IMG/VR virus record: IMGVR_UViG_3300045988_163275
Coordinates: 1 to 64,000 of that record
Length of the DNA: 64,000 nucleotides
Reading direction: 5' to 3' (one strand)
Origin: a virus
Taxonomy: Duplodnaviria; Heunggongvirae; Uroviricota; Caudoviricetes
Shown here one piece after another: positions 1 through 48,394 of this stretch (its first letter is position 1; the number at the start of each line of letters is the position of its first letter). The position numbers were made by a program, and so were the translations under genes. The notes beneath the pieces are model-generated. The model was not told where the DNA came from and searched no databases. It saw only the letters and a program-made list of their open reading frames with translations.

Positions 1-2464
1 CATATGTATCCGTTGCCCTTCTGGCAAAAGCAGCCACATGCGCGGCGGTTAAAGTAATATCTTTTGAACCATCAAACTCAACCCCAGAAACCAGTCTTGG
101 CGTTTGCAGCTTTGTTGCTGTCAATGCGTTACCGTTCAGACTTGCAGACAGCTTGGTTCCAATAACCAGTTCGCCGGTTGCGTTATCAATAGCAAACGGT
201 CTTAATGTATTCCATCCACCATAAACATCACCTTGATTGGTAAGCAGCAGGTAAGTTTTAGCGCCATCATTACGCCATAATGCCCCATACTCCCCACCTA
301 TCATTCGAATCTGATTACCACCACGCGCTACAATTTCGTCTGTGGCAAAAAGTTTTTTGCACGACAAGTTATCGTTAACGATTAACGAATGAGACTCATA
401 AAAACCACGCCCACTCTTAAAATCAAGGATAACGTCCGCCGCGATACATTCAGTCGCTGGATTTGTTGCCCCAAACTTATAGGTCGTATCATTAACAACG
501 AGATCAGCACCAGGTGCGGATATTGACAGGCCATCTTCGATAAACGCAAAAACAGGGAAAGCAGCGCCATCAACATAGAACACAGAGCGCAAATCATCGC
601 CCTTATTACTCATCATTATTGAGTGGATGGCTCGTTCATTGTTTTGATATTGCCAGAACATTCCATAAGCATAACGCCCCCTGTCAGTCCAGCCACCAGG
701 CATAACAAATCCGTTAAACTCGCAGTTATTCATCGGATCGCCTGCGGTTCGCGTTGCCGTGGTGATAATGACCCTTGATGCCAGTTCGCTTACTGAGCCA
801 GCAGAACGCATAACAACAACAGGGTAATATTTTCCAGATGTTGCACCTGCAGGAGCGTTAACCCGCACATAACGCATACCACGCTTATCAGCAAAGTCTG
901 TTTTACTGACCGCGTTAATGTTGTTCAGGAAGCGTCCCTTATCGGGTATATCAGCGCCGTTCTGGTCTTTCTGCAGACGTTTCTCTGCATTGTCATAGGC
1001 TGATTTTACTGCCTTTGGCGTTGTCGCCAGCGTTTCAGACGTACTGTTGGTCGCACTGCTGAGCTGTACTATCCCCTTTTTCGTCGTACTTGCATCCTCA
1101 AGCGCCACGGCGGATGCAATATCCTCTGCCCGTTTTGCCGCTGTCTCAGAGCGTGTTGCCGCGGATTCTGCCGCATTTTTGCTCTGCGCAGCCGCCGTCG
1201 CACTGTCTGCCGCTTCCGTCGCCTTCGTTGATGCCGTTGTCGCACTCTCTGCTGCCGCTGACGCCTGGCGAGCGGCCTCATCTTTTGAAGATGACGCCGA
1301 GGAAGCTGAAACAGAGGCAGAGCTTGCAGATTCGGCTGCTGTCTCCTTAGAAGCAGCGGCATTGTCTTCTGAAGTCTTTGCATTGGTTTCAGAAGATTTT
1401 GCCGCCTCTGCTGACTTTTCCGCAGCTGTTGCCTGTTCCGTCGCCTCTGTCGCTTTAGCGGTGGCATTTGCCGCAGATAACGAAGCGCTTTCCGCAGACT
1501 TTTCTGCCGACGTTGCACTTGATGAAGCACTATCCGCGCTTATTGAGGCCGCGCTCGCTGACGTTTCTGCCACAGATTTAGAACTGTTTGCAGACAATGC
1601 ACTCTGTTCGGCAGCAGCTTCAGACGCTTTTGCGTTTGTCTCTGATGCTTTTGCTGCCTTACATGAATTTGCAGCTTCTGTAGCTGATGATGCTGCCGCG
1701 TTTGCACTCGATGAAGCGTTAGTCTCTGATAATTTAGCCGCATCCTTAGATGCAGAGGCACTGGACGCTGATGTGGCTGCCTCCGATGCTTTAGTCGACG
1801 CCACAGATGCTGATTTTGCTGCCGCTTCTTTTGCCGCTTCTGCGTTTGTTTCAGATTTTTCCGCAGCAGCTGCACTCTCACTCGCCGCACTTTGTGAAGA
1901 TACCGCAGCGGATGCACTTTGAGATGCCTGAGAGGCTTTTTCTACAGCAGTGTTGGCACTTTCTGCCGCAGCGACAGCACTGGCCGCCGCCTCCCGAGCT
2001 TTGTCTCCAGCGGCCTCAATCGCATCGGTGTTATTTTTATACCACTCAACGTTTTCGTTATGCTCGTTGACGATCTGCATTAGCGGCTTAACGGTCACTT
2101 CTGTACCGTCTTCACGCTCGATTGTCACATCATCCAGAGCGGTCAACCAACTGCGCATGGACTTGGAATCAGCCGACATACGCGACATTAGTGCAGTAAA
2201 GCGCGCACTAAACTGAGTTAAGTCGCCTTCATAGGTCGTAATGATTCGGCACGGAACTTTAGATTGAGTTTCGCCGGTATAAGGTTCTGAGAGGACAATG
2301 ACCGTATCACTGGTTACGCGCTTGACCTCATACAACTTATTGTCAGGACCAATGACAATCATGCCCGGTAACACGCCGTTTTCGGTCAAATTCCAACGTG
2401 TTCCGATGCCTGATATTGTGTCGCTTCCTTTTGTAAATGTAACAGTACCTTCCCTGTACCACAT
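1..2464 (-). CDS. side tail fiber protein (partial; C-terminal end runs off the window start)
   Basis: Absent from ORF track because it has no stop in the window. Minus-strand translation from ATG at 2464 (RBS AAGGAG) gives MWYREGTVTF..., a long Ala/Ser/Glu-rich repeat shaft, the fiber motif KKGIVQLSSATNSTSETLATTPKAVK and a distal LTATKLQTPRLVSGVEFDGSKDITL segment. Confidence 0.8.
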   Translation of the reverse strand, partial: MWYREGTVTFTKGSDTISGIGTRWNLTENGVLPGMIVIGPDNKLYEVKRVTSDTVIVLSEPYTGETQSKVPCRIITTYEGDLTQFSARFTALMSRMSADSKSMRSWLTALDDVTIEREDGTEVTVKPLMQIVNEHNENVEWYKNNTDAIEAAGDKAREAAASAVAAAESANTAVEKASQASQSASAAVSSQSAASESAAAAEKSETNAEAAKEAAAKSASVASTKASEAATSASSASASKDAAKLSETNASSSANAAASSATEAANSCKAAKASETNAKASEAAAEQSALSANSSKSVAETSASAASISADSASSSATSAEKSAESASLSAANATAKATEATEQATAAEKSAEAAKSSETNAKTSEDNAAASKETAAESASSASVSASSASSSKDEAARQASAAAESATTASTKATEAADSATAAAQSKNAAESAATRSETAAKRAEDIASAVALEDASTTKKGIVQLSSATNSTSETLATTPKAVKSAYDNAEKRLQKDQNGADIPDKGRFLNNINAVSKTDFADKRGMRYVRVNAPAGATSGKYYPVVVMRSAGSVSELASRVIITTATRTAGDPMNNCEFNGFVMPGGWTDRGRYAYGMFWQYQNNERAIHSIMMSNKGDDLRSVFYVDGAAFPVFAFIEDGLSISAPGADLVVNDTTYKFGATNPATECIAADVILDFKSGRGFYESHSLIVNDNLSCKKLFATDEIVARGGNQIRMIGGEYGALWRNDGAKTYLLLTNQGDVYGGWNTLRPFAIDNATGELVIGTKLSASLNGNALTATKLQTPRLVSGVEFDGSKDITLTAAHVAAFARRATDTY

Positions 2465-2508
2465 GTTCTTTTTCACTCCTTGAAGTGTGGGCGTCCTTGC
2501 CCACACAA

Positions 2509-2529
2509 ATAGGTATATACTTACTTATT
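2509..2529. repeat. TAAGTA-type AT-rich palindrome (family copy)
   Basis: ataggtatatacttacttatt; between J stop and stf start, followed by a GC hairpin. Confidence 0.5.
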
Positions 2530-2599
2530 ATCCATGATACAAAATCCTTTTGCACTAAGAAAACACGCTATATACATTGCTGCTCATTATTCCTATCAA

Positions 2600-5500
2600 T
2601 TAACTGATGCCCGACATGGAAAATGCGCCACTTCCACGGCTGATTAGCATCACGGGCGAATAAATATGTGTCTGTGATGAACTGGTCACTTTTACCGTAA
2701 CAGCAACAGTTCTTGAGGTAACATTGTTAAAAGCAGCGTAAAGAGTGCCACCGACGCCTGTAGAACTTGTCGAATTAAGATCAGGGTCTCTGTATGTTGT
2801 CCCCTTACCAGTGGTTGCGGTCTTCGTCACTCCATTGCAGGTAAATTGGGCTGCAACAGGGCCGACGCCCCCCGTATATACATTTATTGCCACATAAATA
2901 TTTTTGGGCAATGCAGACGAAGAAGAGTCTGTATATGTCATTGTATATGTGCCGTTGTAACGAACTGAGAAGTCATTGCCCACATACATGTTAGCGACAT
3001 CGCCTACGAAGTGATCTGCTTGTACCGTGCCTCTGAATGTTCCGCTGGTAGCCTGTATTTCTCCTGTGAATTTGCCATTTGTTGCGTAAACGGTGCCTCT
3101 AACAGTTACATTGTTAAACTCTGAGTTCCCGTTTTTATTAATATGCCACCCCGTCATCCCGCTTGAGTAATCGTTGGACTGAATGAAGTTGCCTATTTTG
3201 GCGTTATCAATGGTGCCGTTCTTGATATAAGCTCCGTTCATATAAGCCACACCGGCATCAATAACGAATGGCGTTGTAATTTTCCCATTAACGGAGTTCA
3301 CCAAACCAAAGCGATCTGCCTGCACCAAAAACTGCGATAGACCTGTTGTGTCGATGCCCAACGCTATGCCGGCAACATATTTTTGGCCTCCGCTGGTGGA
3401 GGTTTCCATTTTCAGCGTCCAGGCTGTTGATACCTTCTTGTTCGTATCAGCAATAGCTGTGGCCTGTTGTTGAATTGTTGCTGTATTTCCATCTACTGAT
3501 GCTTTTAAGGTGTCAACTCTCCCACTTAGTGCATTGTCGGCGCTTGTACGCGCAGTCGCTTCAGATGTAATCGCAGCATGAATATCTTTGCTCGTTTGAG
3601 CCTGTAGATTAGTGATATTAGAAGCCAAAGCGGAATCAGCATCAGTTCTGGCTTTCGTCTCTTCAGCTACAGCCGCCTTAATATCCTTGCCCGTTTGACT
3701 CTTCAATGTAGTTATCTGTTGTGCCAAAGATTCGTCGGCAGTTGCTCGGGCGTTTTTTTCTTCAGATATAGCGGCACTAATATCGCCTTCAACTTTGGCT
3801 TGTAACGATAGGACTTCTTTTGAAAGTGCTTCATCGGCACTGGCTCGCGCCTCTTGTTCACTCACAATTGCGGCAGAAATGTCATCGTTAATCTTTGATT
3901 CAAGTTTGGTGATTCTGCTTCCAATAGCATTATCCGCATCTACACGAGCCGTAGTCTCTTCAGTGATTGAAGCTCTGATATCCTCATTTATTTCAGCTCT
4001 AATCTCTTCCATTTTCGTAGCCATTGCGGACATATCATCTGCAAAAGCCTTCTGAGTTGTGGCGATCCTGGCATTGCTCACCATCTGTTTGTGCTGGTCT
4101 TCATCCTGACGCAAAGCTAAATCGATGTTTGTTTTAGCCAATGCCTCAATGTTTGTCGTCACTTCGGCACTGGAGTGCTCGACTTCAGCCACGGTTTTTT
4201 TCATCTCTTCAATGGTGGCCAAACTGCTATCTACAGTTGACTTCATTGCCTCGATTTCTTTCGCGTTCGCCAAGTCGCCTTCGACTCGTGCCTCACGTTC
4301 CTCCGCAACTAAAGCCGATGAATTGTCCAGTGCTGCATTCGCGGCCTCAACCGCTCCAGCAACGGCCTTGTCCTGCTCTGAAACAGTTTCCTTCAACTGA
4401 ATTAATGCGGCATTTGAGTTTTCAACCTCCTTAAGAGCCTCTTCCACCTTGCTGGCAGTATTAGAAACTTCCGTTCTAAGAACGTTTTGGGCTTCTTCAA
4501 TCCGTTGATCGGTCTCAGTAAATTTGTCATCAAGGCTTTTCAGGCTTTCTTCCATCTGCTTGTTGATTACGTCGACGGCTTCCTGCGAGGCTTTGGTGTC
4601 GATTTCCTCAAGCAGTTCCTGCCCCAATTCCGAAGAAGTGATCTTCCCGGTCAGGAAAGACAGAACATCTTTCGTCATCGCCTCAGTGCCTAAATTGGAG
4701 TTAGGCTGGCTCAACATTCCGCGTTTGTTTGCTGCACGAACCCAATAGAACCAAGTTTCGCTATCTCCAAGACCTGCGTGCGTAAAGGTGGTACTGGCTG
4801 CTTCGGCAATTAGTTTTGCAGTGTCCAGGTTGTTGGTCCGGGATGCATACACGTTGATGTGATCGAGGTCGATTGAGTCCGGGTTAACCCAATTCAGAAT
4901 CACGTTGCGGTAGTCGCCCACGGCCGTCAGTGCAGTCGGTGCATCCGGCGGCGTCATCGTCCCCTGAACTTTGTAGACGGTGCTGATAATTTCTGTTTTT
5001 TTACCGTTGAATGAAACCGCATACAGTTGGAAGTCGTAGCGTCCATTCTCCGCGACATTAACGATTTCGTATTGCTCTTCGGTTACACGCGCCGATTGCC
5101 AGTTCGATACATTGTTTGCATCAGAACGTCGCCAACTGATCCAATACTCTGGAGATTTCCCTTCCCATGTTGCAGTCAGTTTTACTGACAGGTTGCCCGG
5201 GCTTGAGAGATAAGTCCCTTCAGTGATTTGCAAATTAGACGGCTTGGAGTAAGTCGGGTCCAATACCGTCGTATTCTGCGGGATAAGCGTTGCACCATTG
5301 TCGATCGCCTCATATTTAGACGGATTGTTTTCAACAGCGGTGATGTCAAAGCTACCCGACGTTTCCCCCTGAGCGATGTTAACGATGCGAACGCGCATAG
5401 GTTCGAGATCTGGTTCTGTAATTGTCCAGACACCGTTCAAAACAGGCGTTTCCGCTGACGACAGGGCTTTTGAAAACGTAACTTTTGTTATATTTTCGCC

Positions 5501-7180
5501 AGTTTCAAGAACATCGCGTTCAACGATTTTGCCTTCCTGATTCAGTATTCGAATAAAGCAGCCGCCTTTGGCTAACGACACAGGCGCATCGAGTGTGACG
5601 CTGTTTTTGGTAAACGCCACAATTCGACCTGAGTTACGTTTGCCTGCGCGATATTTGTTCTGAATCAGAACGGTTTCACCAGGCATCAAAAATGACGCGT
5701 CTAAGCCGGCAGTAAATGTAATTACATCCGACTCCATTCTGGCGGTATATAAAAGCCACAAACCAACTCGGTGAGCCTGCCCTCGGCTTGTACAGCCAAA
5801 TGCTACGACTTCTGTCTTACGCTCACCATAACGGCGCATTGCGTCCTGATCTTCAACGTACTCGATGTTTTGCTTATAACCGTCCTCCTTGTTGTTGTAG
5901 GTTACGAGCGCAACGGATGGGCGATCTTTACGCGCAGAACCTTTATAGGTAAACAATCCATCTTTGACGTTAGAGTTGGTAAACATCATTACCGGATCTG
6001 ATGGGCTATCCTGCATGATGTTAACCATCCCACCAGCCCAAAACACCATGCCGCGGAATGCTCCAGCAATATCCTGAATTAGCCGGTATGCGTCCTGTCG
6101 ACTGGTGATCTGCGTATTGATTGCAAAGCGTTTCTCTTTGCCACCAAAGCCATCATCGACCTCTTCGTCACAATATCGACCAATCTGGTACAACTGGCCA
6201 AGGTCAATCATAGATTCCGACACATACTGACCAAGGCCATATCGAGCATTGGTCAGCAAATCAAAGAGAATCCACGCAGGGTTTGAAGAAGACAACAGCT
6301 TAAAAGTACCGTCCCATACGCCGACATAAGTATTGGTGTATTCGTTGTAGTTTGACGGTACTCGGATTTTGATACCGCGCACCAAATACGAACGGGAAGG
6401 CATTGTGCTACCAAACTGCTCTGAATTGACCTTCAAGCCAACAAGAGCAGAGTTAGGGTAGTTCATTGGCGTGTCGACAATTTCCCCGATGGAATCCACC
6501 CATGTATCGTTATAGAGATACTGAGTTTTGCTGTCGTCGGTTAGACGTATGACACGAACCTTATATGCACGGCCAGGTTTCGGCAGTTTGAGTTCATAGC
6601 TGCGGTAGTAAACACCTGTCTTCTTCGCTGTCAGTGCAATTTCAACGTCTTTCTCACCTTCAGCAACGACATCGGCAAATGTTCCATCGCCATTGGCAAT
6701 CTGGAACTTGTATTTGACTGTTGTACCGTTGGTGTCGCCGGATTTCTTATCCACGGAACGTAGAGAGGGGAATTTGAGAATGAGTCGAACGCGGTCAGCT
6801 TCATCGTTATCGATGGAGACCGTGACATCATGCGTCTTTTTCAACTGAATGTTGATGGACTTCGGCGTCTCGACGAAATCAAAACCGGCCATAGGCGTCT
6901 GATCTTGCGAACCATCGCGAAAATCCCATGTAATACCGCTGTAGTTTGCAGAGCCGTCTTCATTGAGGATCGGCAGGTCGTCGATAAAAATCGACTTTGC
7001 TCCGTCGACAAGACCGCCAATAGCGCCTTCCCCGAGCAAGTCGAGGATGGACGCCATAGCACGCGAGTTAACGGTATCATCGGCTTCAACCGGCGTGCGG
7101 CTGGAGCTGCTGCTTTTCTTGCCGCCTGCACCTGCGATCAGGAGAGGCAGTCTTTTCTTCTTGAACTGTTCCATGTTCAA
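2600..7180 (-). CDS. host specificity / central tail fiber protein (lambda J-like)
   Basis: 1526-aa ORF directly after I/K/L/M-like genes in lambda order; coiled-coil Ala-rich repeats in the C-terminal half and a distinct C-terminal domain. Confidence 0.85.
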   Translation of the reverse strand: MNMEQFKKKRLPLLIAGAGGKKSSSSSRTPVEADDTVNSRAMASILDLLGEGAIGGLVDGAKSIFIDDLPILNEDGSANYSGITWDFRDGSQDQTPMAGFDFVETPKSINIQLKKTHDVTVSIDNDEADRVRLILKFPSLRSVDKKSGDTNGTTVKYKFQIANGDGTFADVVAEGEKDVEIALTAKKTGVYYRSYELKLPKPGRAYKVRVIRLTDDSKTQYLYNDTWVDSIGEIVDTPMNYPNSALVGLKVNSEQFGSTMPSRSYLVRGIKIRVPSNYNEYTNTYVGVWDGTFKLLSSSNPAWILFDLLTNARYGLGQYVSESMIDLGQLYQIGRYCDEEVDDGFGGKEKRFAINTQITSRQDAYRLIQDIAGAFRGMVFWAGGMVNIMQDSPSDPVMMFTNSNVKDGLFTYKGSARKDRPSVALVTYNNKEDGYKQNIEYVEDQDAMRRYGERKTEVVAFGCTSRGQAHRVGLWLLYTARMESDVITFTAGLDASFLMPGETVLIQNKYRAGKRNSGRIVAFTKNSVTLDAPVSLAKGGCFIRILNQEGKIVERDVLETGENITKVTFSKALSSAETPVLNGVWTITEPDLEPMRVRIVNIAQGETSGSFDITAVENNPSKYEAIDNGATLIPQNTTVLDPTYSKPSNLQITEGTYLSSPGNLSVKLTATWEGKSPEYWISWRRSDANNVSNWQSARVTEEQYEIVNVAENGRYDFQLYAVSFNGKKTEIISTVYKVQGTMTPPDAPTALTAVGDYRNVILNWVNPDSIDLDHINVYASRTNNLDTAKLIAEAASTTFTHAGLGDSETWFYWVRAANKRGMLSQPNSNLGTEAMTKDVLSFLTGKITSSELGQELLEEIDTKASQEAVDVINKQMEESLKSLDDKFTETDQRIEEAQNVLRTEVSNTASKVEEALKEVENSNAALIQLKETVSEQDKAVAGAVEAANAALDNSSALVAEEREARVEGDLANAKEIEAMKSTVDSSLATIEEMKKTVAEVEHSSAEVTTNIEALAKTNIDLALRQDEDQHKQMVSNARIATTQKAFADDMSAMATKMEEIRAEINEDIRASITEETTARVDADNAIGSRITKLESKINDDISAAIVSEQEARASADEALSKEVLSLQAKVEGDISAAISEEKNARATADESLAQQITTLKSQTGKDIKAAVAEETKARTDADSALASNITNLQAQTSKDIHAAITSEATARTSADNALSGRVDTLKASVDGNTATIQQQATAIADTNKKVSTAWTLKMETSTSGGQKYVAGIALGIDTTGLSQFLVQADRFGLVNSVNGKITTPFVIDAGVAYMNGAYIKNGTIDNAKIGNFIQSNDYSSGMTGWHINKNGNSEFNNVTVRGTVYATNGKFTGEIQATSGTFRGTVQADHFVGDVANMYVGNDFSVRYNGTYTMTYTDSSSSALPKNIYVAINVYTGGVGPVAAQFTCNGVTKTATTGKGTTYRDPDLNSTSSTGVGGTLYAAFNNVTSRTVAVTVKVTSSSQTHIYSPVMLISRGSGAFSMSGIS

Positions 7181-7326
7181 AAAATCCTTATTACATAAGC
7201 TGGTCGATGGTGATAGAAGAACTCACAACCTGCGAGCCAACCAAAATTTCCTCTCCATAGATCAGCTGCACCGGGTTTCCTTGGTTAGTGGTGTTCTGCG
7301 GCCCATCGAAATAGAACGAGTCGGAG

Positions 7327-7776
7327 TTATCTGCCTGTCTCGTTAGTGGCTTGCGGAGATATGATTTGCGCTATACCGCCCATCATCAGTGACAAACCGA
7401 GAGGTGCTAAAGCAGGCATCATTACCGCCGATACAACCAACAAAGCGGCTCCTACTACCGTCTGAAACCACCCAAAAGCAGAACCGCCGCTTCCTCGCGG
7501 AACAGGGGTAATGCGGATTTTGGCTATGTTGTCAGACTGCCCCATCATCTGATATTCACTCTCGTCCACAGACCACTTGTAGCCCTGTTTATTGGTGATC
7601 TGGATGTGGTATTTGTCGTAGGTTTTGAGATTTCGCTTCATCCAGGCTTTGAATCCGGGGCGATTAGCCTCAATCAAATCCAGAGCCTGCTTGGTGTTGC
7701 GAACTTTCAAATGCCAATGACGACCAAAATGTTTGGCCATAGGGCCGCCAAGTTGCACATGAACTAACTCAGACAC
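7327..7776 (-). CDS. tail assembly protein (lambda I-like)
   Basis: 149 aa; hydrophobic Gly/Ala-rich C-terminus (GGSAFGWFQTVVGAALLVVSAVMMPALAPLGL); sits between K-like and J-like genes. Confidence 0.65.
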   Translation of the reverse strand: MSELVHVQLGGPMAKHFGRHWHLKVRNTKQALDLIEANRPGFKAWMKRNLKTYDKYHIQITNKQGYKWSVDESEYQMMGQSDNIAKIRITPVPRGSGGSAFGWFQTVVGAALLVVSAVMMPALAPLGLSLMMGGIAQIISPQATNETGR

Positions 7777-41706: not shown

Positions 41707-41728
41707 ATTAGGTAAGTATTTACCTCTC
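41707..41728. repeat. TAAGTA-type palindrome
   Basis: attaggtaagtatttacctctc; between the methyltransferase stop and 41664 start. Confidence 0.5.
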
Positions 41729-43412
41729 ATTTAACGCGTTTAAAAACGTATACGCTGACAGTAATCCCGGTGTCTTCAAACATGTTAGTAAACGACTTCC
41801 CTTTGGCATAAACGTAATTATCCAGCGTCATCCAGTTTAGAATTGGCGCGTCGCCCGGCAGCACTGCTACCAGACGCCCACCGACTTTCAGATGTCCCAG
41901 CGCGGCCAACGTGTGCTCTCTGTGACGGCCAAGAGAGTAGGGCGGGTTCATGACGATTTTGTCGAACTGATAACCTGCGTTGTCCTCAGACCACTTCATG
42001 AAGTCGCAGCAGACCGTATTTGTGTACCCCTTGCCAAGCAGGATATCAGCGAAGAGAGGTGCGACTTCTATGCAGGTAACGTCTTCCGGATTGGCGTCGA
42101 TGCAGGCCAGCAGATCTCCGCGCCCGGCTTCAGGCTCCAGCAGCTTCTCACCTGGCTTCAGCTCGATGGCTCTGGCAACGTACTCCGCTATCAAACGCGG
42201 GGTAGGGTAGAACTGGTGTGATTTTGTATCCGGTATTAAGCCGGTGGCCACAATCGTATTGAGCGTATGGCCGATCTCATACGGGAACTGCCAGTGCTTG
42301 TTCTCCTGCACGCCGCCAATAAAGCTCAGTGTACGCTCCAGCTCTTCCACCTGTGACTTCTGAAGACCGGAATCAGAGAAGTACCATACGCGTTTGTCAT
42401 TGCCAGATCGCCCGTCGCGAAGCGCAGTACGCACCGGCTCGGAGATCGTCTTCTGGATTAACCCGAACTGTTTTGGTGCCCGTGTTTTGGGCGCAGTACG
42501 ACATGGAGCCGGGATTGCAGCGGGCATACTGTAAGCCAGCACCTCATTCAGCTTCCAGGCTACGTCAGGATGTATTTCAAAGTGAACGTTGCCGTTCTTA
42601 AACATCTTCACACGCATCAGGTTTCCGTCGACATTCATCCAGTCGCCGGTCTGGCAGTCATTTGCTCGATACGCAGCTGACAGCATCTCGGCCGTGCGGT
42701 TGATGGTGATAAATTCTTTGTGTGCAAAGAAATGCAACATGACGCGCAGGTCGTCTATGTAATCCTCTTTCCGGTAGTTAACGCTGACGCTGTCCCGCCA
42801 GAAATCGGAAATGCAGTCGGCGATGATCAGACGCTCGCTGAAGCCGTTCGTCTTATTGGTCTTGTGAGCAGGACTCAACGCCTTAAACAAGCCATACACG
42901 CGCTCAGAGAGATATTTGTGCCTGTCATTCAGCAAATTAAGCATCGTTGGTATGACCGTTTCTGCTTTGAACTCAGGTACACCAACGAACTCTTTAACCT
43001 TCATTTGATAGCCAGTTCTGTCAGTCTTGATCGTTTCCTGCTTGCCCTCGATAAACTGTTCACGCCACTCGTCGCGGCGGGATGCTGGCATGATCAGCAG
43101 AACGTTGGTCATATCCGTGACCTTCTTCCAGTACTCGGCCCAGATATTTTGTTTCACCCATTCCAGGTCGACTTTGTCCAGCCAGGTTCTGTTAAAGCGT
43201 GTGCGCTCGTCGTCCGGCCGGTGGTTAAGTCGCAGTAGACGGTTAATCATGTTGTGGCGTTCGTCGCCATAAACGAAGTCGTGAACCTTATTCATGAACG
43301 CAATCTCTTTCTCGCATTCGGCCACAATTTCGTGGATAACATTCATTTCCTGCCGGTAGTCAATACCGGTGTCTGGAGTGATAGAGTCAATGATGGAAAG
43401 GGCTGTATTCAT
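41727..43412 (-). CDS. DNA methyltransferase (N6-adenine/N4-cytosine type) with large N-terminal domain
   Basis: C-terminal methyltransferase motifs: motif I (LLEPEAGRGDLL) and motif IV (VMNPPYS); about 390-aa N-terminal region of unknown function; true ATG at MNTALSIIDS; promoter plus palindrome module upstream. Confidence 0.7.
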   Translation of the reverse strand: MNTALSIIDSITPDTGIDYRQEMNVIHEIVAECEKEIAFMNKVHDFVYGDERHNMINRLLRLNHRPDDERTRFNRTWLDKVDLEWVKQNIWAEYWKKVTDMTNVLLIMPASRRDEWREQFIEGKQETIKTDRTGYQMKVKEFVGVPEFKAETVIPTMLNLLNDRHKYLSERVYGLFKALSPAHKTNKTNGFSERLIIADCISDFWRDSVSVNYRKEDYIDDLRVMLHFFAHKEFITINRTAEMLSAAYRANDCQTGDWMNVDGNLMRVKMFKNGNVHFEIHPDVAWKLNEVLAYSMPAAIPAPCRTAPKTRAPKQFGLIQKTISEPVRTALRDGRSGNDKRVWYFSDSGLQKSQVEELERTLSFIGGVQENKHWQFPYEIGHTLNTIVATGLIPDTKSHQFYPTPRLIAEYVARAIELKPGEKLLEPEAGRGDLLACIDANPEDVTCIEVAPLFADILLGKGYTNTVCCDFMKWSEDNAGYQFDKIVMNPPYSLGRHREHTLAALGHLKVGGRLVAVLPGDAPILNWMTLDNYVYAKGKSFTNMFEDTGITVSVYVFKRVK

Positions 43413-43421
43413 GATTGCACC

Positions 43422-43482
43422 ATTAAACAAATTGTTTTCTTATTGGTGTTATTTTCTCAAAGCTAAAAAGGCGTAAAAGCAG
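43422..43482 (-). promoter_or_regulatory. promoter plus palindrome module
   Basis: Minus strand: GCTTTTACGCCTTTTT...GAAAATAACACCAATAAGAAAACAATTTGTTTAATGG, upstream of the methyltransferase gene. Confidence 0.55.
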
Positions 43483-44141: not shown

Positions 44142-44205
44142 TTTTAAACAAGTTGTTTTCTTAATTGTTTAATTGTCTCAAATTCTATGATGATGTGAAG
44201 AGTTG
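44142..44205 (-). promoter_or_regulatory. promoter plus palindrome module
   Basis: Minus strand: ...ACAATTAAACAATTAAGAAAACAACTTGTTTAAAAG, upstream of 43553..44125. Confidence 0.5.
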
Positions 44206-44333
44206 CATTAAGGCGAAAAGACACGCAAAAGGAAAAATCAGGCATACCAGACATTTATTTAAAGTGGCATTCATAGCAGAATGTTCTCATTGCCGAAGTT
44301 CTATTCAGACGTCAGTCCCTAAGAGAGAGCAAA

Positions 44334-45293
44334 ATGTTTGGTAATCTTTTCAAAACGGAAGAAACTAAGGCCCGGGAGGGCTTGGAGTCTCATTATCAGA
44401 AAGTCATGAGCTTCGTTGCTGAAAATGATCTACATGAAGCATGGGAAAAAACACGCAATATCATTTTTCGAAATATGGAAGTTAGAAGCTACATCACGCA
44501 AAACGGCGCGTTCGATCGTAACGATTTTTACTATAAGTCAGCCAAAGAGAAGCTTATTCAAAGCGCCTTCACTTCATACCTACTCATAAAAGTTTTACCT
44601 CAGTTCTATGAAATGCATCTCACCACTTTGAAAAGAAAAGAAAAAACACTCACAACACAGGATGAATACGGGGTCTGGAACTTTGACAAGTGGTTTGATG
44701 AAGTAGACTACTTTTATGACAAGGTAGTAAAAGAGAAAGTTTACGATTGGATCGAAGAGAACACAGGCCGGCTCAACAACCTTTGGTTGGCAGAGTCGGA
44801 GGACAAGAATGCCTGGGGGCGGCCAGTTTACTTTAAATTCCAGTTGCCTGAACAATTTGATCGCTGCGCAATAAATCACATTATGACGGTGGTAGACAAT
44901 ACACCAGAACCTGAATTACCTGAGTACACTTCGCTACTGACCGGGCACGAATATGAGCATTTTGTCGCTGGGGAGTTTATGAAGTATGGATCCGACACCC
45001 AAGTAACTAAGGGCAGCGGCGATCACGGTCTGGATATCCTTGTAACCTATAGAGAAGTTCGAATGGCTGTTCAGTGCAAACACTACCAGTCTAAAGTAGG
45101 CAACAAAGCTATTCAGGAAGCATTTTCCGCGAAACAGTTCTACGATTGCTCCCTCGCAATAGTAGTCAGCAACAGCGAGTTTACCCCTCACGCCAGACAA
45201 GCAGCCAAAAAACTGGACGTTTATCTGTATCACCATGAAGATATACACTTAATAATAGACGCCATTAATAATTGGCTGGATGCGCCGGAGTGA
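44334..45293 (+). CDS. Mrr-type restriction endonuclease domain protein with novel N-terminal domain
   Basis: C-terminal PD-(D/E)xK Mrr-catalytic pattern (GHEYEHFVAGEFMKYG...GSGDHGLDILVT...VQCKHYQSKVGNKAIQEAFSA...VVSNSEFTPHARQAAKK); aromatic-rich N-terminal region of about 200 aa. Confidence 0.65.
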   Translation: MFGNLFKTEETKAREGLESHYQKVMSFVAENDLHEAWEKTRNIIFRNMEVRSYITQNGAFDRNDFYYKSAKEKLIQSAFTSYLLIKVLPQFYEMHLTTLKRKEKTLTTQDEYGVWNFDKWFDEVDYFYDKVVKEKVYDWIEENTGRLNNLWLAESEDKNAWGRPVYFKFQLPEQFDRCAINHIMTVVDNTPEPELPEYTSLLTGHEYEHFVAGEFMKYGSDTQVTKGSGDHGLDILVTYREVRMAVQCKHYQSKVGNKAIQEAFSAKQFYDCSLAIVVSNSEFTPHARQAAKKLDVYLYHHEDIHLIIDAINNWLDAPE

Positions 45294-45328
45294 AGATTGA
45301 GGGGCTAATGCCCCCCCCTATTCGTCGG

Positions 45329-45517
45329 TTAAAAGAACCCGAGGATGCCGCCCACTGGAACAATGAAAACTCCCACGACACGCGCAAGTGTCACTCCGGC
45401 ATGAGACTGGAGATCGCCATCGTTCACAAGTTTCACCAGATTCATGATCCAGCCGCTAAACAAAAAAACGGTAAAGCCAACAATCATCAAGGTGAATTTC
45501 TGGAAGTTCCATTTCAT
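45329..45517 (-). CDS. small two-helix membrane protein
   Basis: 62 aa with two hydrophobic helices (FTLMIVGFTVFLFSGWIMNLV; VVGVFIVPVGGILGFF); ATGA-coupled to the upstream ORF. Confidence 0.4.
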   Translation of the reverse strand: MKWNFQKFTLMIVGFTVFLFSGWIMNLVKLVNDGDLQSHAGVTLARVVGVFIVPVGGILGFF

Positions 45518-45771
45518 ACAATAGCCTCAGTCACAGCAGAAGGAAGATCCGGAGTCGCAGGTCGAGCTGGAATCGTGTCCATCAGCATCCCATCCAGAGA
45601 GACAGGAGGTCGTTCGGGCAGGGGGGTCATCTGCAAGGCCGTGGTGGCAGTGGAAGTAGTTGTGCCCGGCATCAAAAGGCTCTGACCGGCTGGTACGGTA
45701 ACCGCTGCCAGAGTTGCCAAAATCACTCCGTAGGCCATTGGCTTCAGTCGATTTCGTTGAAAATTTTCCAT
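45514..45771 (-). CDS. secreted Pro/Thr-rich small protein (embedded ORF)
   Basis: Start at MENFQRNRLK with RBS AAGGA; signal-peptide-like segment (MAYGVILATLAAVTVPAG) then Thr/Pro-rich tail; lies in another frame inside the 3' half of ORF 45527..46120. Confidence 0.35.
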   Translation of the reverse strand: MENFQRNRLKPMAYGVILATLAAVTVPAGQSLLMPGTTTSTATTALQMTPLPERPPVSLDGMLMDTIPARPATPDLPSAVTEAIV

Positions 45772-46120
45772 GAGAACTGTCCTTGTGTGTCCGGGTTTCA
45801 CGCAAAACACGAGAAGCAACGCTATTACGCACCTTCTCCATGCCTACTGTCGTGCCCAGATTAGCTATGGCGGTAGCTTGCGCATTAATGCGCTTCTCCA
45901 GTTCAAACACTCGTTCTTCCAGTTCCGCAAGGCGTGCGGAAACACGACCACTAAACAGCTCGGTCAGCACCAGGCGAATTGAACGGGGACGTTTATTGAA
46001 AGAAGTGAAAGACGTTTGACGGGCCATGTGGATTCCATTCAGTGTCAGAAAGAGTTGCGGCTGGCCAAGCCGCCTTTTGGCGTTCCATCCTGGAACCGTA
46101 CCTAACCGGTACTTCGTCAT
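45527..46120 (-). CDS. hypothetical protein with coiled-coil segment (overlaps embedded ORF)
   Basis: 197-aa ORF; N-terminal half protein-like with coiled coil (RLAELEERVFELEKRINAQATAIANL); C-terminal half low-complexity and overlapped out of frame by 45514..45771. Confidence 0.25.
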   Translation of the reverse strand: MTKYRLGTVPGWNAKRRLGQPQLFLTLNGIHMARQTSFTSFNKRPRSIRLVLTELFSGRVSARLAELEERVFELEKRINAQATAIANLGTTVGMEKVRNSVASRVLRETRTHKDSSHGKFSTKSTEANGLRSDFGNSGSGYRTSRSEPFDAGHNYFHCHHGLADDPPARTTSCLSGWDADGHDSSSTCDSGSSFCCD

Positions 46121-46177: not shown

Positions 46178-46774
46178 TTATGACAAAAACCCAATGTCAT
46201 GCTTGTGAGGCATATCAGCTGCGGAATAGGCGGCGATCTTCGCCAGACGGTCACACATTTCGTTCTCGCGATGACCTGCATGGCCTTTAACCCACTTCCA
46301 GCGGACATTATGACGACTGGCGGCCGCGTCGAGACGTTTCCAGAGATCCACGTTTTTGACTGGCTTCTTCTCAGACGTGATCCATCCGTTACGCTTCCAG
46401 CCTTTCATCCAGAGCGTCATGCCGTTTTTAAGATACTGGCTGTCGGAATGCAGGATCACGTTGCAGGGGTACTTCAGACGCTCCAGCGCAATCAGGGCGC
46501 CCATCATCTCCATCCGATTGTTGGTCGTGCTGTGGAAGCCCTCAGAAAGCTCGCGCTCTTCGCCTCGATACTGGAGAACGATGCCGTAACCGCCCGGCCC
46601 GCCCGGATTTTTGAGGCAGGAGCCATCACTGAATACTTTTACGGTTTTGAGCTGGGGATTGAACTCGACTACGGGTGTGTTGAAATTGGTACGGGAATGC
46701 TGGTGGGTTTGGCATCTGGCTTTAGACTTCGTGCGGCAGCCAGTGCGTTGCCGGACTGGGTTCTTGGTCGTCAT
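46178..46774 (-). CDS. rnhA: ribonuclease HI
   Basis: Close match to E. coli RnhA pattern ([20 protein letters not shown]...[12 protein letters not shown]...[11 protein letters not shown]...[10 protein letters not shown]...[18 protein letters not shown]); about 40-aa basic N-terminal extension; RBS GGAG. Confidence 0.85.
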
Positions 46775-47350
46775 TTTGGCTCCAGAATCGTGCGCCGCGA
46801 CGATTTTTGTTTTCTCGCGCGTGTGCGCACGCGTGCGTGTAAATAATAAAAAATTTTATAAAAGAAAAACTTACTTCCCAGAACAGGTTTTAATAAAACC
46901 TGAACTGAACGAACGAAGTGAGTGAAGTTCACCTCGAACGAAGTGAGAGGTTGTCTTTTCAGGTAATACTCTCCCAGGGAGGTGAGTACAAAATTTCCTC
47001 ACCAACCTGGTCGTTTCATAACCTGAAAAGTTATGACCTAAGTCTACTGCCAGCTTAGGCTTGGGAAGTTATGGATGACAGCACCCCAGAACCGAGATCT
47101 TCCCACACTTTATGAAGGGGAGTACTGGAATCAACCTCTCGAAACACTCCAGACTCGACAATCATAAAGTGACCCTTCTCTCTGCTCACTTTGGTTCCCC
47201 CTTCCCCAACCCCTAAACGGTGCTGGTTCTACGCTGGTAGTGAGCTTTTTTAAACCTGACGCCAGTGACGCAATCCCCCACCCATCAGGTCGAGCTGCCG
47301 AAAGTATCCGGAAGCGGATAGATTGTATCACTGGTTAGTGGCGCTTTGAA

Positions 47351-47368
47351 TGGTAAGTACTTACCTAT
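47351..47368. repeat. TAAGTA-type palindrome
   Basis: tggtaagtacttacctat; overlaps the stop codon of 47368..47598. Confidence 0.5.
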
Positions 47369-47598
47369 TATATTGATTGATTAATTTCTCGCCCATGCAG
47401 CTGGACATTCAGAGCAAACACCTCATTGATCAGCTCACCCAACAACTGCTCCACCAGTTCTATGTGCTCGCCTGAATGAAGACACTTGAGCGACCATTCG
47501 TAGAGACTGAAAGCCTTATCGCGATCTTTCATCATGTCGCGTATCTTGGCCAGAAAATCGCTCTCAACGAGCGCTACGACGTTCGTCGGGTATATCAT
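47368..47598 (-). CDS. hypothetical protein
   Basis: 76 aa ORF downstream of the 17-bp IR hairpin element. Confidence 0.4.
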   Translation of the reverse strand: MIYPTNVVALVESDFLAKIRDMMKDRDKAFSLYEWSLKCLHSGEHIELVEQLLGELINEVFALNVQLHGREINQSI

Positions 47599-47800: not shown

Positions 47801-48394
47801 TTACGCTGCCTTTTTACGTGGTCTCTTCTTCCTGACAACATTGGCAGGGTCATAACCACCCAGCTTTTTCATCACCGCCAGCGGTATCTTGCTGATGGTG
47901 TGCCCAGCTTCCTGACAGTAGCCACGGAAGATAAGCAACATGCTGCCACCAGGGTTGATGTTCACCTCCACCAGCCCAAGTTCAACATCCGGCTCAACGA
48001 ACGCCACGCGGCCGCCAGACAAGATGACGGTTTCGTTGGCGCATTCAGCCGCACGCTCGTACCACTGCGTATCGAGGGATTGTGGTATCAGCATGACCGT
48101 CGTCACTCCACGCGCCTGCTCGCGAATGGCTGCGTCTATCCAGGGGGTGATTTTGGAGTAGGGCGGGTTAAGGAACGCCACAGTGCCAGGTTCTCCCCAA
48201 CTGCACTTGAGCGCATCACGCTCAACACCGATAAAGTTCGGCAGGAGAGCATTATCTTTGTTGCAGGCGACGTCCACATCGAACTTTACGCCTATGTAAC
48301 GTTGGATGGCGACAAACAACCACTGCGGTGTGCGCCAAAGGTCGCGAAGAGAGGCATCACGCTCTCGCTTTTTGATTTTTTCGGCTGCGATCAT
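47801..48394 (-). CDS. dam: DNA N6-adenine methyltransferase (phage Dam-type)
   Basis: NPPY motif in context FLNPPYSKITPWIDAAI; about 197 aa as in small phage Dam enzymes. Confidence 0.75.
   Translation of the reverse strand: MIAAEKIKKRERDASLRDLWRTPQWLFVAIQRYIGVKFDVDVACNKDNALLPNFIGVERDALKCSWGEPGTVAFLNPPYSKITPWIDAAIREQARGVTTVMLIPQSLDTQWYERAAECANETVILSGGRVAFVEPDVELGLVEVNINPGGSMLLIFRGYCQEAGHTISKIPLAVMKKLGGYDPANVVRKKRPRKKAA

Follow-up and report, generated by a model that had tools for sequence, protein, structure and literature searches.

A solitary Mrr_cat nuclease with an undescribed N-terminal domain in a variable slot of an SSU5-like phage-plasmid

Background

Among the described proteins closest to the one reported here, EcoKMrr possesses a DNA-binding domain that is thought to recognise methylated DNA, and its D203A variant has been used as a catalytic mutant (PMC5435990). 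Epona, encoded by a single gene in the superintegron of Vibrio cholerae, is a fusion of Mrr_cat with a "holin" domain of two transmembrane (TM) helices, and confers phage resistance in E. coli in experiments (bioRxiv 10.1101/2024.07.02.601686). SNIPE is a nuclease bound to the membrane and composed of a TM segment, DUF4041 and a GIY-YIG domain, in which removal of the anchor makes the nuclease toxic (bioRxiv 10.1101/2025.11.03.685801). Here we analyse another Mrr_cat protein, encoded in a 64,000-nucleotide (nt) stretch of viral DNA (Caudoviricetes; positions 1 to 64,000 of the IMG/VR record IMGVR_UViG_3300045988_163275), which as a whole is referred to below as the window. The protein comprises 319 amino acids (aa), with a helical N-terminal domain (N-domain) followed by the nuclease.

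With a probability of roughly 0.55, we regard this nuclease as a solitary accessory "moron" that resides in a variable slot of an SSU5-like phage-plasmid and serves in defence against, or exclusion of, competing phages or mobile DNA, with the N-domain acting as the gate. The architecture, i.e. a solitary Mrr_cat nuclease joined to an undescribed N-domain, is new; what is known is the generic name "restriction endonuclease" that the public annotation (Prokaryotic Genome Annotation Pipeline, PGAP) gives to the protein in identical plasmids. Our literature search found no paper on this gene, and nothing of this type is listed in a survey of SSU5 elements with DefenseFinder.

The nuclease domain and its active site

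The open reading frame (ORF) delineated in the initial annotation was recovered exactly, and the Mrr catalytic PD-(D/E)xK domain that had been assigned there to its C-terminal part is borne out by the Pfam model Mrr_cat (PF04471), which matches aa 202-303 with E=2.1e-21 and 76.6 bits (cutoff 21). Weaker Pfam matches to NA-iREase1, RRG7 and Mrr_cat_2 overlap the same region. The C-terminal region alone is matched in PHROGs (phrog_17577, "restriction endonuclease") and in PADLOC, where the nuclease portion is recognised by the profiles of the nuclease end of ZorD (1.5e-15), of PDC-S02 (8e-11; positions 190-297 of 334 only) and of LmuA (5e-5); a search of NCBIfam with the protein gave no match. 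The domain has the alpha/beta fold typical of restriction endonucleases, with weak structural similarity to Hjc and NucS.

A careful alignment of the catalytic residues, which had been suggested as a check on the assignment, revealed that none has been lost: E208, D230, D234, Q247 and K249 are invariant in all nine members of the close family and likewise among 60 wider relatives. In the alignment with EcoKMrr, D234 faces the catalytic residue D203, and VQCK of the nuclease, i.e. Q247-x-K249, faces the VQAK motif. Judged by these residues, the nuclease is predicted to be catalytically competent.

The N-terminal domain and its conserved module

Searches of Pfam, PHROGs, NCBIfam, PADLOC and the sequences of the Protein Data Bank (PDB) with aa 1-200, both as a single sequence and as a profile, returned nothing significant, in agreement with the earlier remark that the first ~200 aa lack a recognisable motif. 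That remark had also called the region aromatic-rich; aromatic residues make up 16.5%, the net charge is acidic (-5), and the stretch singled out there overlaps the second half of the conserved module described below. The structure model proposed as a further check was calculated with AlphaFold2 (AF2) for the N-domain alone, and it is confident (predicted local distance difference test, pLDDT, 88.9; predicted template modelling score, pTM, 0.80), showing a soluble all-alpha bundle with one beta-hairpin. Comparison of this model with known folds, winged-helix included, yielded no match, and Mrr_N (PF14338) has no match in the protein even at E<=1. A membrane segment is likewise absent from the protein, the maximum 19-aa Kyte-Doolittle mean being 0.97. 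The proline- and acid-rich linker to the nuclease domain (VDNTPEPELPEYTSL) falls in a stretch without regular secondary structure (aa 190-203), and the mean pLDDT over aa 191-200 of the full-length model is 69.

When the N-domain profile was compared with 1.84 billion representative sequences, 391 matches were obtained at E<=1e-3, about five of which span aa 1-85; the others cover only profile positions ~85-137. These positions correspond to a helix-hairpin-helix module with a core of ~50 aa, made of a helix at aa 89-106, a hairpin, and a second helix at aa 118-142, and with the signature L99-x2-K102-x3-L106-x3-D110-x-Y112-G113-x6-W120-x2-E123 (LxxKxxxLxxxDxYGx6WxxE). In 60 diverse members L99, K102, Y112, G113, W120 and E123 are invariant, and at least 90% retain L106 and D110. 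In 115 of 124 module-bearing proteins Mrr_cat follows downstream, and six relatives match the Pfam Hjc model. About half of the module-bearing relatives have a membrane helix predicted upstream of the module by a crude hydropathy test, and a few possess two or three modules in tandem. The gap between the module and the GDxGxD motif of the nuclease domain is 130 residues in the window protein and ranges in the subfamily from 94 to 190, being typically ~115. The subfamily is spread over Acetobacteraceae, Alteromonas, Planctomycetota, Flavobacteriaceae and others, and the protein from the window, with the signature at aa 99-123 upstream of GDxGxD, belongs to it. None of the Pfam models covers the module and none of the solved structures contains it. 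The N-domain as a whole is without a described counterpart, and its core is a widespread yet unannotated module.

Full-length relatives are few. Among 5.8 billion clustered proteins we found only nine, with identities of 37-100%; one (Klebsiella sp., 51%) occurs in 185,579 species-representative genomes, and two in IMG/VR. The named hosts are Enterobacteriaceae (E. coli, Klebsiella, Cronobacter). The alignment of the nine sequences served as the profile for the search of loci, and a second homologue search with a broad profile added little. Divergence in the close family is much faster in the N-terminal parts than in the nuclease domain, e.g. in the relative P0007 three N-terminal segments are 30%, 49% and 42% identical to the window protein, against 76% for the nuclease domain.

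One short N-terminal element is retained throughout. The nonapeptide MF(G/R)N(L/I)FK(S/T)E (aa 1-9, positions 44334-44360) is kept even in the relative with 37% identity, the rest of whose N-terminal region is only ~22% identical. It is modelled with low confidence, and could be a targeting or autoinhibitory peptide.

The variable slot of the phage-plasmid

For the region of the window that harbours the gene, matches were obtained to Salmonella phage SSU5 and to 324 IncFIB "non-mobilizable" plasmids from E. coli, Enterobacter, Klebsiella, Salmonella and Citrobacter, and therefore the window represents an SSU5-like phage-plasmid. In alignments with SSU5 and with a Citrobacter plasmid that has nothing inserted at this place, the backbone homology ends at ~44163 and resumes at ~45329, which delimits a cassette with a GC content of 0.40-0.44 (~0.50 in the flanks) on the strand opposite to every neighbouring backbone gene. 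The gene order in SSU5 is SSU5_095 (methyltransferase), SSU5_094, SSU5_092, SSU5_091, RNase H and SSU5_088 (methyltransferase). The slot between SSU5_094 and SSU5_092 is filled in SSU5 with a Rha/Ant antirepressor gene on the minus strand (L002:4728-5759), and it is empty in the Citrobacter plasmid (L003:3727-3843). In a spread sample of the 324 SSU5-like records, from which the slot states were read, most have Rha/Ant, some have an empty slot, and seven have the nuclease; the nuclease carriers are without an antirepressor at the slot, i.e. Rha/Ant has been displaced. The SSU5 slot behaves as an accessory hotspot. Of 5426 complete E. coli genomes, 6 contain the cassette at an identity of at least 99%, in each case on a plasmid.

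The plasmids with the cassette that we found in PLSDB and RefSeq are CP057716, CP074043, CP110979, CP088502, AP027538, AP027577 and JBRNIK010000002. Most of them are atypical in size (70, 96, 158, 189, 214, 231 and 240 kb, as compared with ~105-115 kb in typical SSU5-like elements), at least two have insertion sequence (IS) elements close by (IS421, IS4321), and in several the homology ends right at a hairpin near the stop codon, at window position ~45313. The sizes, the nearby IS elements and the break at the hairpin together suggest that these plasmids are deleted or cointegrated derivatives.

Settings of the orthologues

A diverged SSU5-related plasmid of Cronobacter (pCsaCS931a) has an allele with 66% identity in this slot, oriented alike; the Dam protein and RNase H of this plasmid are 92% and 85% identical to those of the window, and its slot also holds DUF3927 and TerB genes. 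The remaining orthologues reside in different surroundings. The one with 70% identity belongs to islands of the E. coli chromosome that also contain an integrase, a resolvase and a DUF5906 primase-like gene and are inserted at two sites, at one of which the island carries PD-Lambda-2 (PADLOC 3e-187 and 1e-157); the orthologue with 69% identity adjoins an IncFII repA gene, the one with 50% identity lies beside a pyocin/cloacin gene and a lysis cassette, and the one with 37% identity beside a resolvase. The wider module-bearing relatives are also located on mobile elements, i.e. next to serine recombinases or integrases, in a P2-like prophage, and on small plasmids. These solitary settings on varied mobile elements indicate that the nuclease gene travels alone.

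Several further details of these loci deserve mention. In the island with the 70% orthologue (L004/L006/L008, ~487-3111 and 6879-7460) a HigB-like gene accompanies PD-Lambda-2_B and PD-Lambda-2_C of PD-Lambda-2, a defence system that has been validated, and a serine recombinase gene lies directly upstream of the nuclease gene; serine recombinase genes also flank relatives in the loci L012, L016 and L018. A distant relative corresponding to aa 109-310 was detected by tblastn at positions 2629-3204 of the Zymomonas mobilis plasmid pZA1003, a mobilizable replicon of 4.5 kb with only rep, RelBE and mob as other genes and with no methyltransferase; the annotated coding sequence there, of 130 aa, is seemingly shorter than the tblastn match.

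Methyltransferases and other neighbours

The initial annotation had reported a Dam-like and a large NPPY methyltransferase on the replicon, and both are indeed present (Table 1). It had, however, seen a conflict between them and an Mrr-type enzyme, and this conflict disappears on two grounds: it equates the Mrr_cat fold with modification dependence, and the two methyltransferases are conserved genes of the SSU5 backbone (SSU5_095 and SSU5_088) that are present in all three states of the slot. At the orthologous loci examined there is no methyltransferase within 8 kb. Because the methyltransferases are backbone genes and the orthologues have no methyltransferase neighbour, the juxtaposition with the nuclease is incidental; a cognate methyltransferase that is adjacent and co-inherited, as in classical restriction-modification (R-M) systems, is absent here. 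The candidacy of the two enzymes as cognate partners was rejected by this comparison of genomes, in which they are present with or without the nuclease.

The upstream regions of the orthologous loci have only one feature in common, the pattern ATTCAT-GCAGAAT, which in the window reads ATTCATAGCAGAAT. As judged from the upstream alignment, this box may serve the gene as a promoter of its own (-10 region); a scan for consensus promoters did not call it. Comparison of five orthologous loci revealed no conserved small ORF or RNA up- or downstream of the gene, and a 59-aa ORF at 44165..44344, considered as a possible partner, was dismissed as not conserved.

At the other end, the gene is convergent with that of a small membrane protein, as had been noted before, and between the two stop codons lies the hairpin that had been pointed out too. 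The hairpin is present and unique in the window, but it is modest, with a stem of 5 bp (GGGGC-TAAT-GCCCC) and no U tract, and its 51-nt context has a folding energy of -16.2 kcal/mol (z -1.9). An intrinsic terminator was rejected on the basis of the missing U tract, the z-score and the silence of the terminator scan; the hairpin may be a weak bidirectional transcription stop or a stem that stabilises RNA.

Two observations concern the backbone further downstream. The SSU5_091 homologue, given with 197 aa in our ORF list, has no Pfam domain, and the annotations of SSU5 and of the plasmids call it with ~165 aa, so that its start codon is ambiguous. A non-coding stretch of ~370 nt (window 46925-47300) between the RNase H gene and the 76-aa gene has an identity of ~97-99% when the window, SSU5 and the diverged Cronobacter-like element are compared, whereas the flanking proteins are only 57-92% identical. 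Its predicted fold has z -4.5 on the minus strand, which is that of the surrounding genes, and z -2.9 on the plus strand; it contains no tRNA and has no Rfam match even at E<=1. The stretch is a candidate for a structured non-coding RNA or a replication element.

Table 1. Features of the nuclease locus and its surroundings, in window coordinates
Feature	Position (nt)	Strand	Remarks
DUF4942 protein	41727..43430	-	567 aa; NPPY motif; weak N6_Mtase match (Pfam)
Accessory cassette	44164..45328	+	slot filler, 1165 bp; upstream region, nuclease gene and short 3' region
ATTCATAGCAGAAT box	44269..44282	+	~55-65 nt upstream of ATG; upstream alignment of the window and two orthologues (L004, L013)
Nuclease coding sequence	44334..45293	+	319 aa, ATG start; N-terminal helical domain and C-terminal Mrr_cat
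N-terminal domain	44334..44897	+	aa 1-188; all-alpha bundle with one small beta-hairpin
Conserved helix-hairpin-helix module	44604..44768	+	aa 91-145; shared with a wide Mrr_cat subfamily
Linker VDNTPEPELPEYTSL	44898..44936	+	aa 189-201; Pro/Glu-rich; joins both domains
Mrr_cat PD-(D/E)xK nuclease domain	44937..45242	+	aa 202-303; Pfam PF04471
Catalytic codon E208	44955-44957		
Catalytic codon D234	45033-45035		
Catalytic codon Q247	45072-45074		
Catalytic codon K249	45078-45080		
Short GC hairpin GGGGCTAATGCCCC	45301..45314	.	between convergent stop codons; unique in window
Two-helix membrane protein	45329..45517	-	62 aa; convergent with the nuclease gene
SSU5_091 homologue	45527..46120	-	197-aa ORF (ORF list)
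RNase H gene	46178..46774	-	
76-aa gene	47368..47598		
Phage Dam-family methyltransferase	47801..48394	-	PF05869, 4e-37; ~2.5 kb from the nuclease

Proposed role and alternative explanations

In the mechanism that we propose for defence or exclusion, from which both the phage-plasmid and its host would benefit, the C-terminal Mrr_cat domain would cut DNA, while the fast-evolving, acidic, all-alpha N-domain, built round the module, would be both sensor and gate, so that the cell would be spared by the nuclease as long as no infection cue arrives. Being acidic and without a known DNA-reader fold, the N-domain would probably respond to a foreign protein or to a certain location, and less likely to a modification of DNA. 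The analysis shows the structure of the gene with its intact catalytic residues, the fold, the limits of the cassette and the states of the slot, the solitary occurrence on mobile elements, and the broad spread of the module. From these we infer nuclease activity, the defence role and the gating by the N-domain, with further arguments in the presence of PD-Lambda-2 in one island with an orthologue, in the similarity of the nuclease domain to those of the defence proteins ZorD, PDC-S02 and LmuA, in the faster divergence of the N-domain, which parallels that of the sensor or adapter regions of SNIPE (bioRxiv 10.1101/2025.11.03.685801), and in the precedent of Epona (bioRxiv 10.1101/2024.07.02.601686).

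Several points weigh against this interpretation. The support that the genomic setting seems to give to defence is guilt by association, and for the protein as well as for its full-length relatives the role is read from sequence, models and setting. None of the PADLOC, PHROG or NCBIfam models fits the full-length protein. The pTM of the full-length model is 0.62, which makes the relative orientation of the two domains uncertain. A constitutive non-specific nuclease would need self-protection, which here we infer. Finally, with Rha/Ant displaced from the slot, part of the selective value of the nuclease could concern the lysis-lysogeny behaviour of the element and not defence.

The explanation closest to the initial annotation is that of a Type IV modification-dependent enzyme, the N-domain of which would read a modification of competitor phages (e.g. 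hydroxymethylcytosine, hmC, or glucosyl-hmC) other than the adenine methylation that the replicon's own enzymes make. We consider it unlikely, if worth keeping in mind: the catalytic domain is from the same Pfam family as EcoKMrr, the gene is solitary and lacks a cognate methyltransferase, like those of Type IV enzymes, and Y112, W120, K102, D110 and E123 could in principle form a base-binding pocket, but a net charge of -5 is unusual for a DNA reader, there is neither Mrr_N nor any known reader fold, the identity to EcoKMrr is 23% over 82 aa of the catalytic core, and membrane anchoring, predicted for roughly half of the relatives with the module, is foreign to Type IV enzymes. The premise that an Mrr-type enzyme is modification-dependent relies on the shared Mrr_cat fold, and falters on the absence of Mrr_N and the limited similarity of the cores; the accompanying suspicion that the protein might not be a restriction enzyme is reasonable as far as classical enzymes are concerned. 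A housekeeping or life-cycle role, i.e. the resolution of recombination or replication intermediates in the manner of Hjc or the degradation of host DNA in lytic growth, strikes us as quite improbable. The weak structural similarity to Hjc and NucS, the six relatives with Pfam Hjc matches and the presence in the region of RNase H, methyltransferase and exonuclease genes would fit it, yet the nuclease can be dispensed with (it is missing from SSU5 and from over 300 related plasmids), it is transcribed against the backbone operon, and its orthologues occur in non-phage chromosomal islands and beside a plasmid repA.

We give very little credence to a methylation-sensitive nuclease that would form a de facto R-M pair with Dam methylation, provided by the host and/or the Dam-family enzyme of the element, and cut incoming unmethylated DNA. 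The full-length relatives with named hosts come from Enterobacteriaceae, which typically have Dam, and a Dam-family methyltransferase is encoded 2.5 kb away on the replicon; however, the latter belongs to the backbone and shows no co-variation with the nuclease, the module subfamily extends to the distant taxa listed above, no recurring methyltransferase-like neighbour of the module-bearing relatives was noticed when adjacent ORFs were judged by their N-terminal sequences only, and the protein has no evident sequence-recognition domain. Stabilisation of the element by addiction, in which the nuclease would act like a toxin and cause the death of cells from which the element or a labile inhibitor has been lost, has only a slim chance of being correct. 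It would agree with the occurrence on plasmids, including that of the distant relative on the 4.5-kb Zymomonas plasmid, and with the persistence of nuclease-bearing plasmids as cointegrates, but no small ORF or RNA that could be a partner is conserved at the orthologous loci, RelBE is already present on the Zymomonas plasmid, and copies exist in chromosomal islands. Barely credible, and rejected by us, is a catalytically inactive restriction-endonuclease fold used for binding or regulation as in NA-iREase1: the match to the corresponding Pfam model (PF22722, E=3e-11) is uninformative, since the active EcoKMrr gives a match of 2e-10 to that model; the active site of the window protein is intact, with residues that are invariant across the family, and no NACHT gene lies nearby.

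If a gated defence nuclease of the kind favoured here is indeed active, it would add a compact, methyltransferase-independent enzyme to the known defence genes of SSU5-type phage-plasmids, elements that are frequent among clinical E. coli, Shigella, Salmonella and Klebsiella, and it would offer a tractable entry in E. coli to an unannotated module present in hundreds of protein clusters. A broader proposal, against which the odds still lie, is that the module plus a variable N-terminal adapter defines an extensive family, so far without a name, of immune nucleases that consist of a single protein (~390 clusters at 50% identity). The module would then be a new kind of sensor or gate, linking cleavage by Mrr_cat to a cue of infection or, as in SNIPE, to a place in the cell, and the copy on the phage-plasmid would be a soluble variant for inter-element warfare. 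This module family appears to us more worth following than the juxtaposition with the methyltransferases. Two general lessons are that a match to Mrr_cat alone does not amount to modification-dependent restriction, and that orphan methyltransferases near a nuclease on a phage backbone need not be its partners.

Comparison with known systems

With EcoKMrr the window protein shares the C-terminal Mrr_cat domain with its aligned catalytic residues, as well as the solitary state without a methyltransferase; the two differ in the N-terminal part, which in EcoKMrr is Mrr_N (3e-20) and in the window protein the unrelated all-alpha domain of 188 aa. ZorD (Zorya I), the Mrr-type LmuA of Lamassu and PDC-S02 have in common with it the nuclease domain, to which the profile matches are confined (aa ~195-305 only), whereas the helicase part, the part that goes with a structural maintenance of chromosomes (SMC) partner, and the N-terminal part of PDC-S02, respectively, are absent; we found no Zor or Lmu partner genes in the window region. 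Epona, compared by its description, is similar in that a mobile cassette encodes one protein whose effector is Mrr_cat, and different in being anchored in the membrane where the window protein is a soluble helical bundle. SNIPE has the same layout, i.e. an adapter that varies at the N-terminus, a conserved middle domain and, conserved most of all, the nuclease at the C-terminus, but its nuclease is from another superfamily, and neither DUF4041 nor GIY-YIG is matched in the window protein. Both Epona and SNIPE are cited as analogies and not as evidence of membership. The window protein is also akin to the unnamed module-bearing Mrr_cat subfamily, generally annotated as "restriction endonuclease", in which the same module precedes the same GDxGxD...QxK core. 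Most of these relatives have another region before the module, while the soluble helical extension of 90 aa that begins with MFGNLFK(S/T)E is confined to a handful of elements from Enterobacteriaceae.

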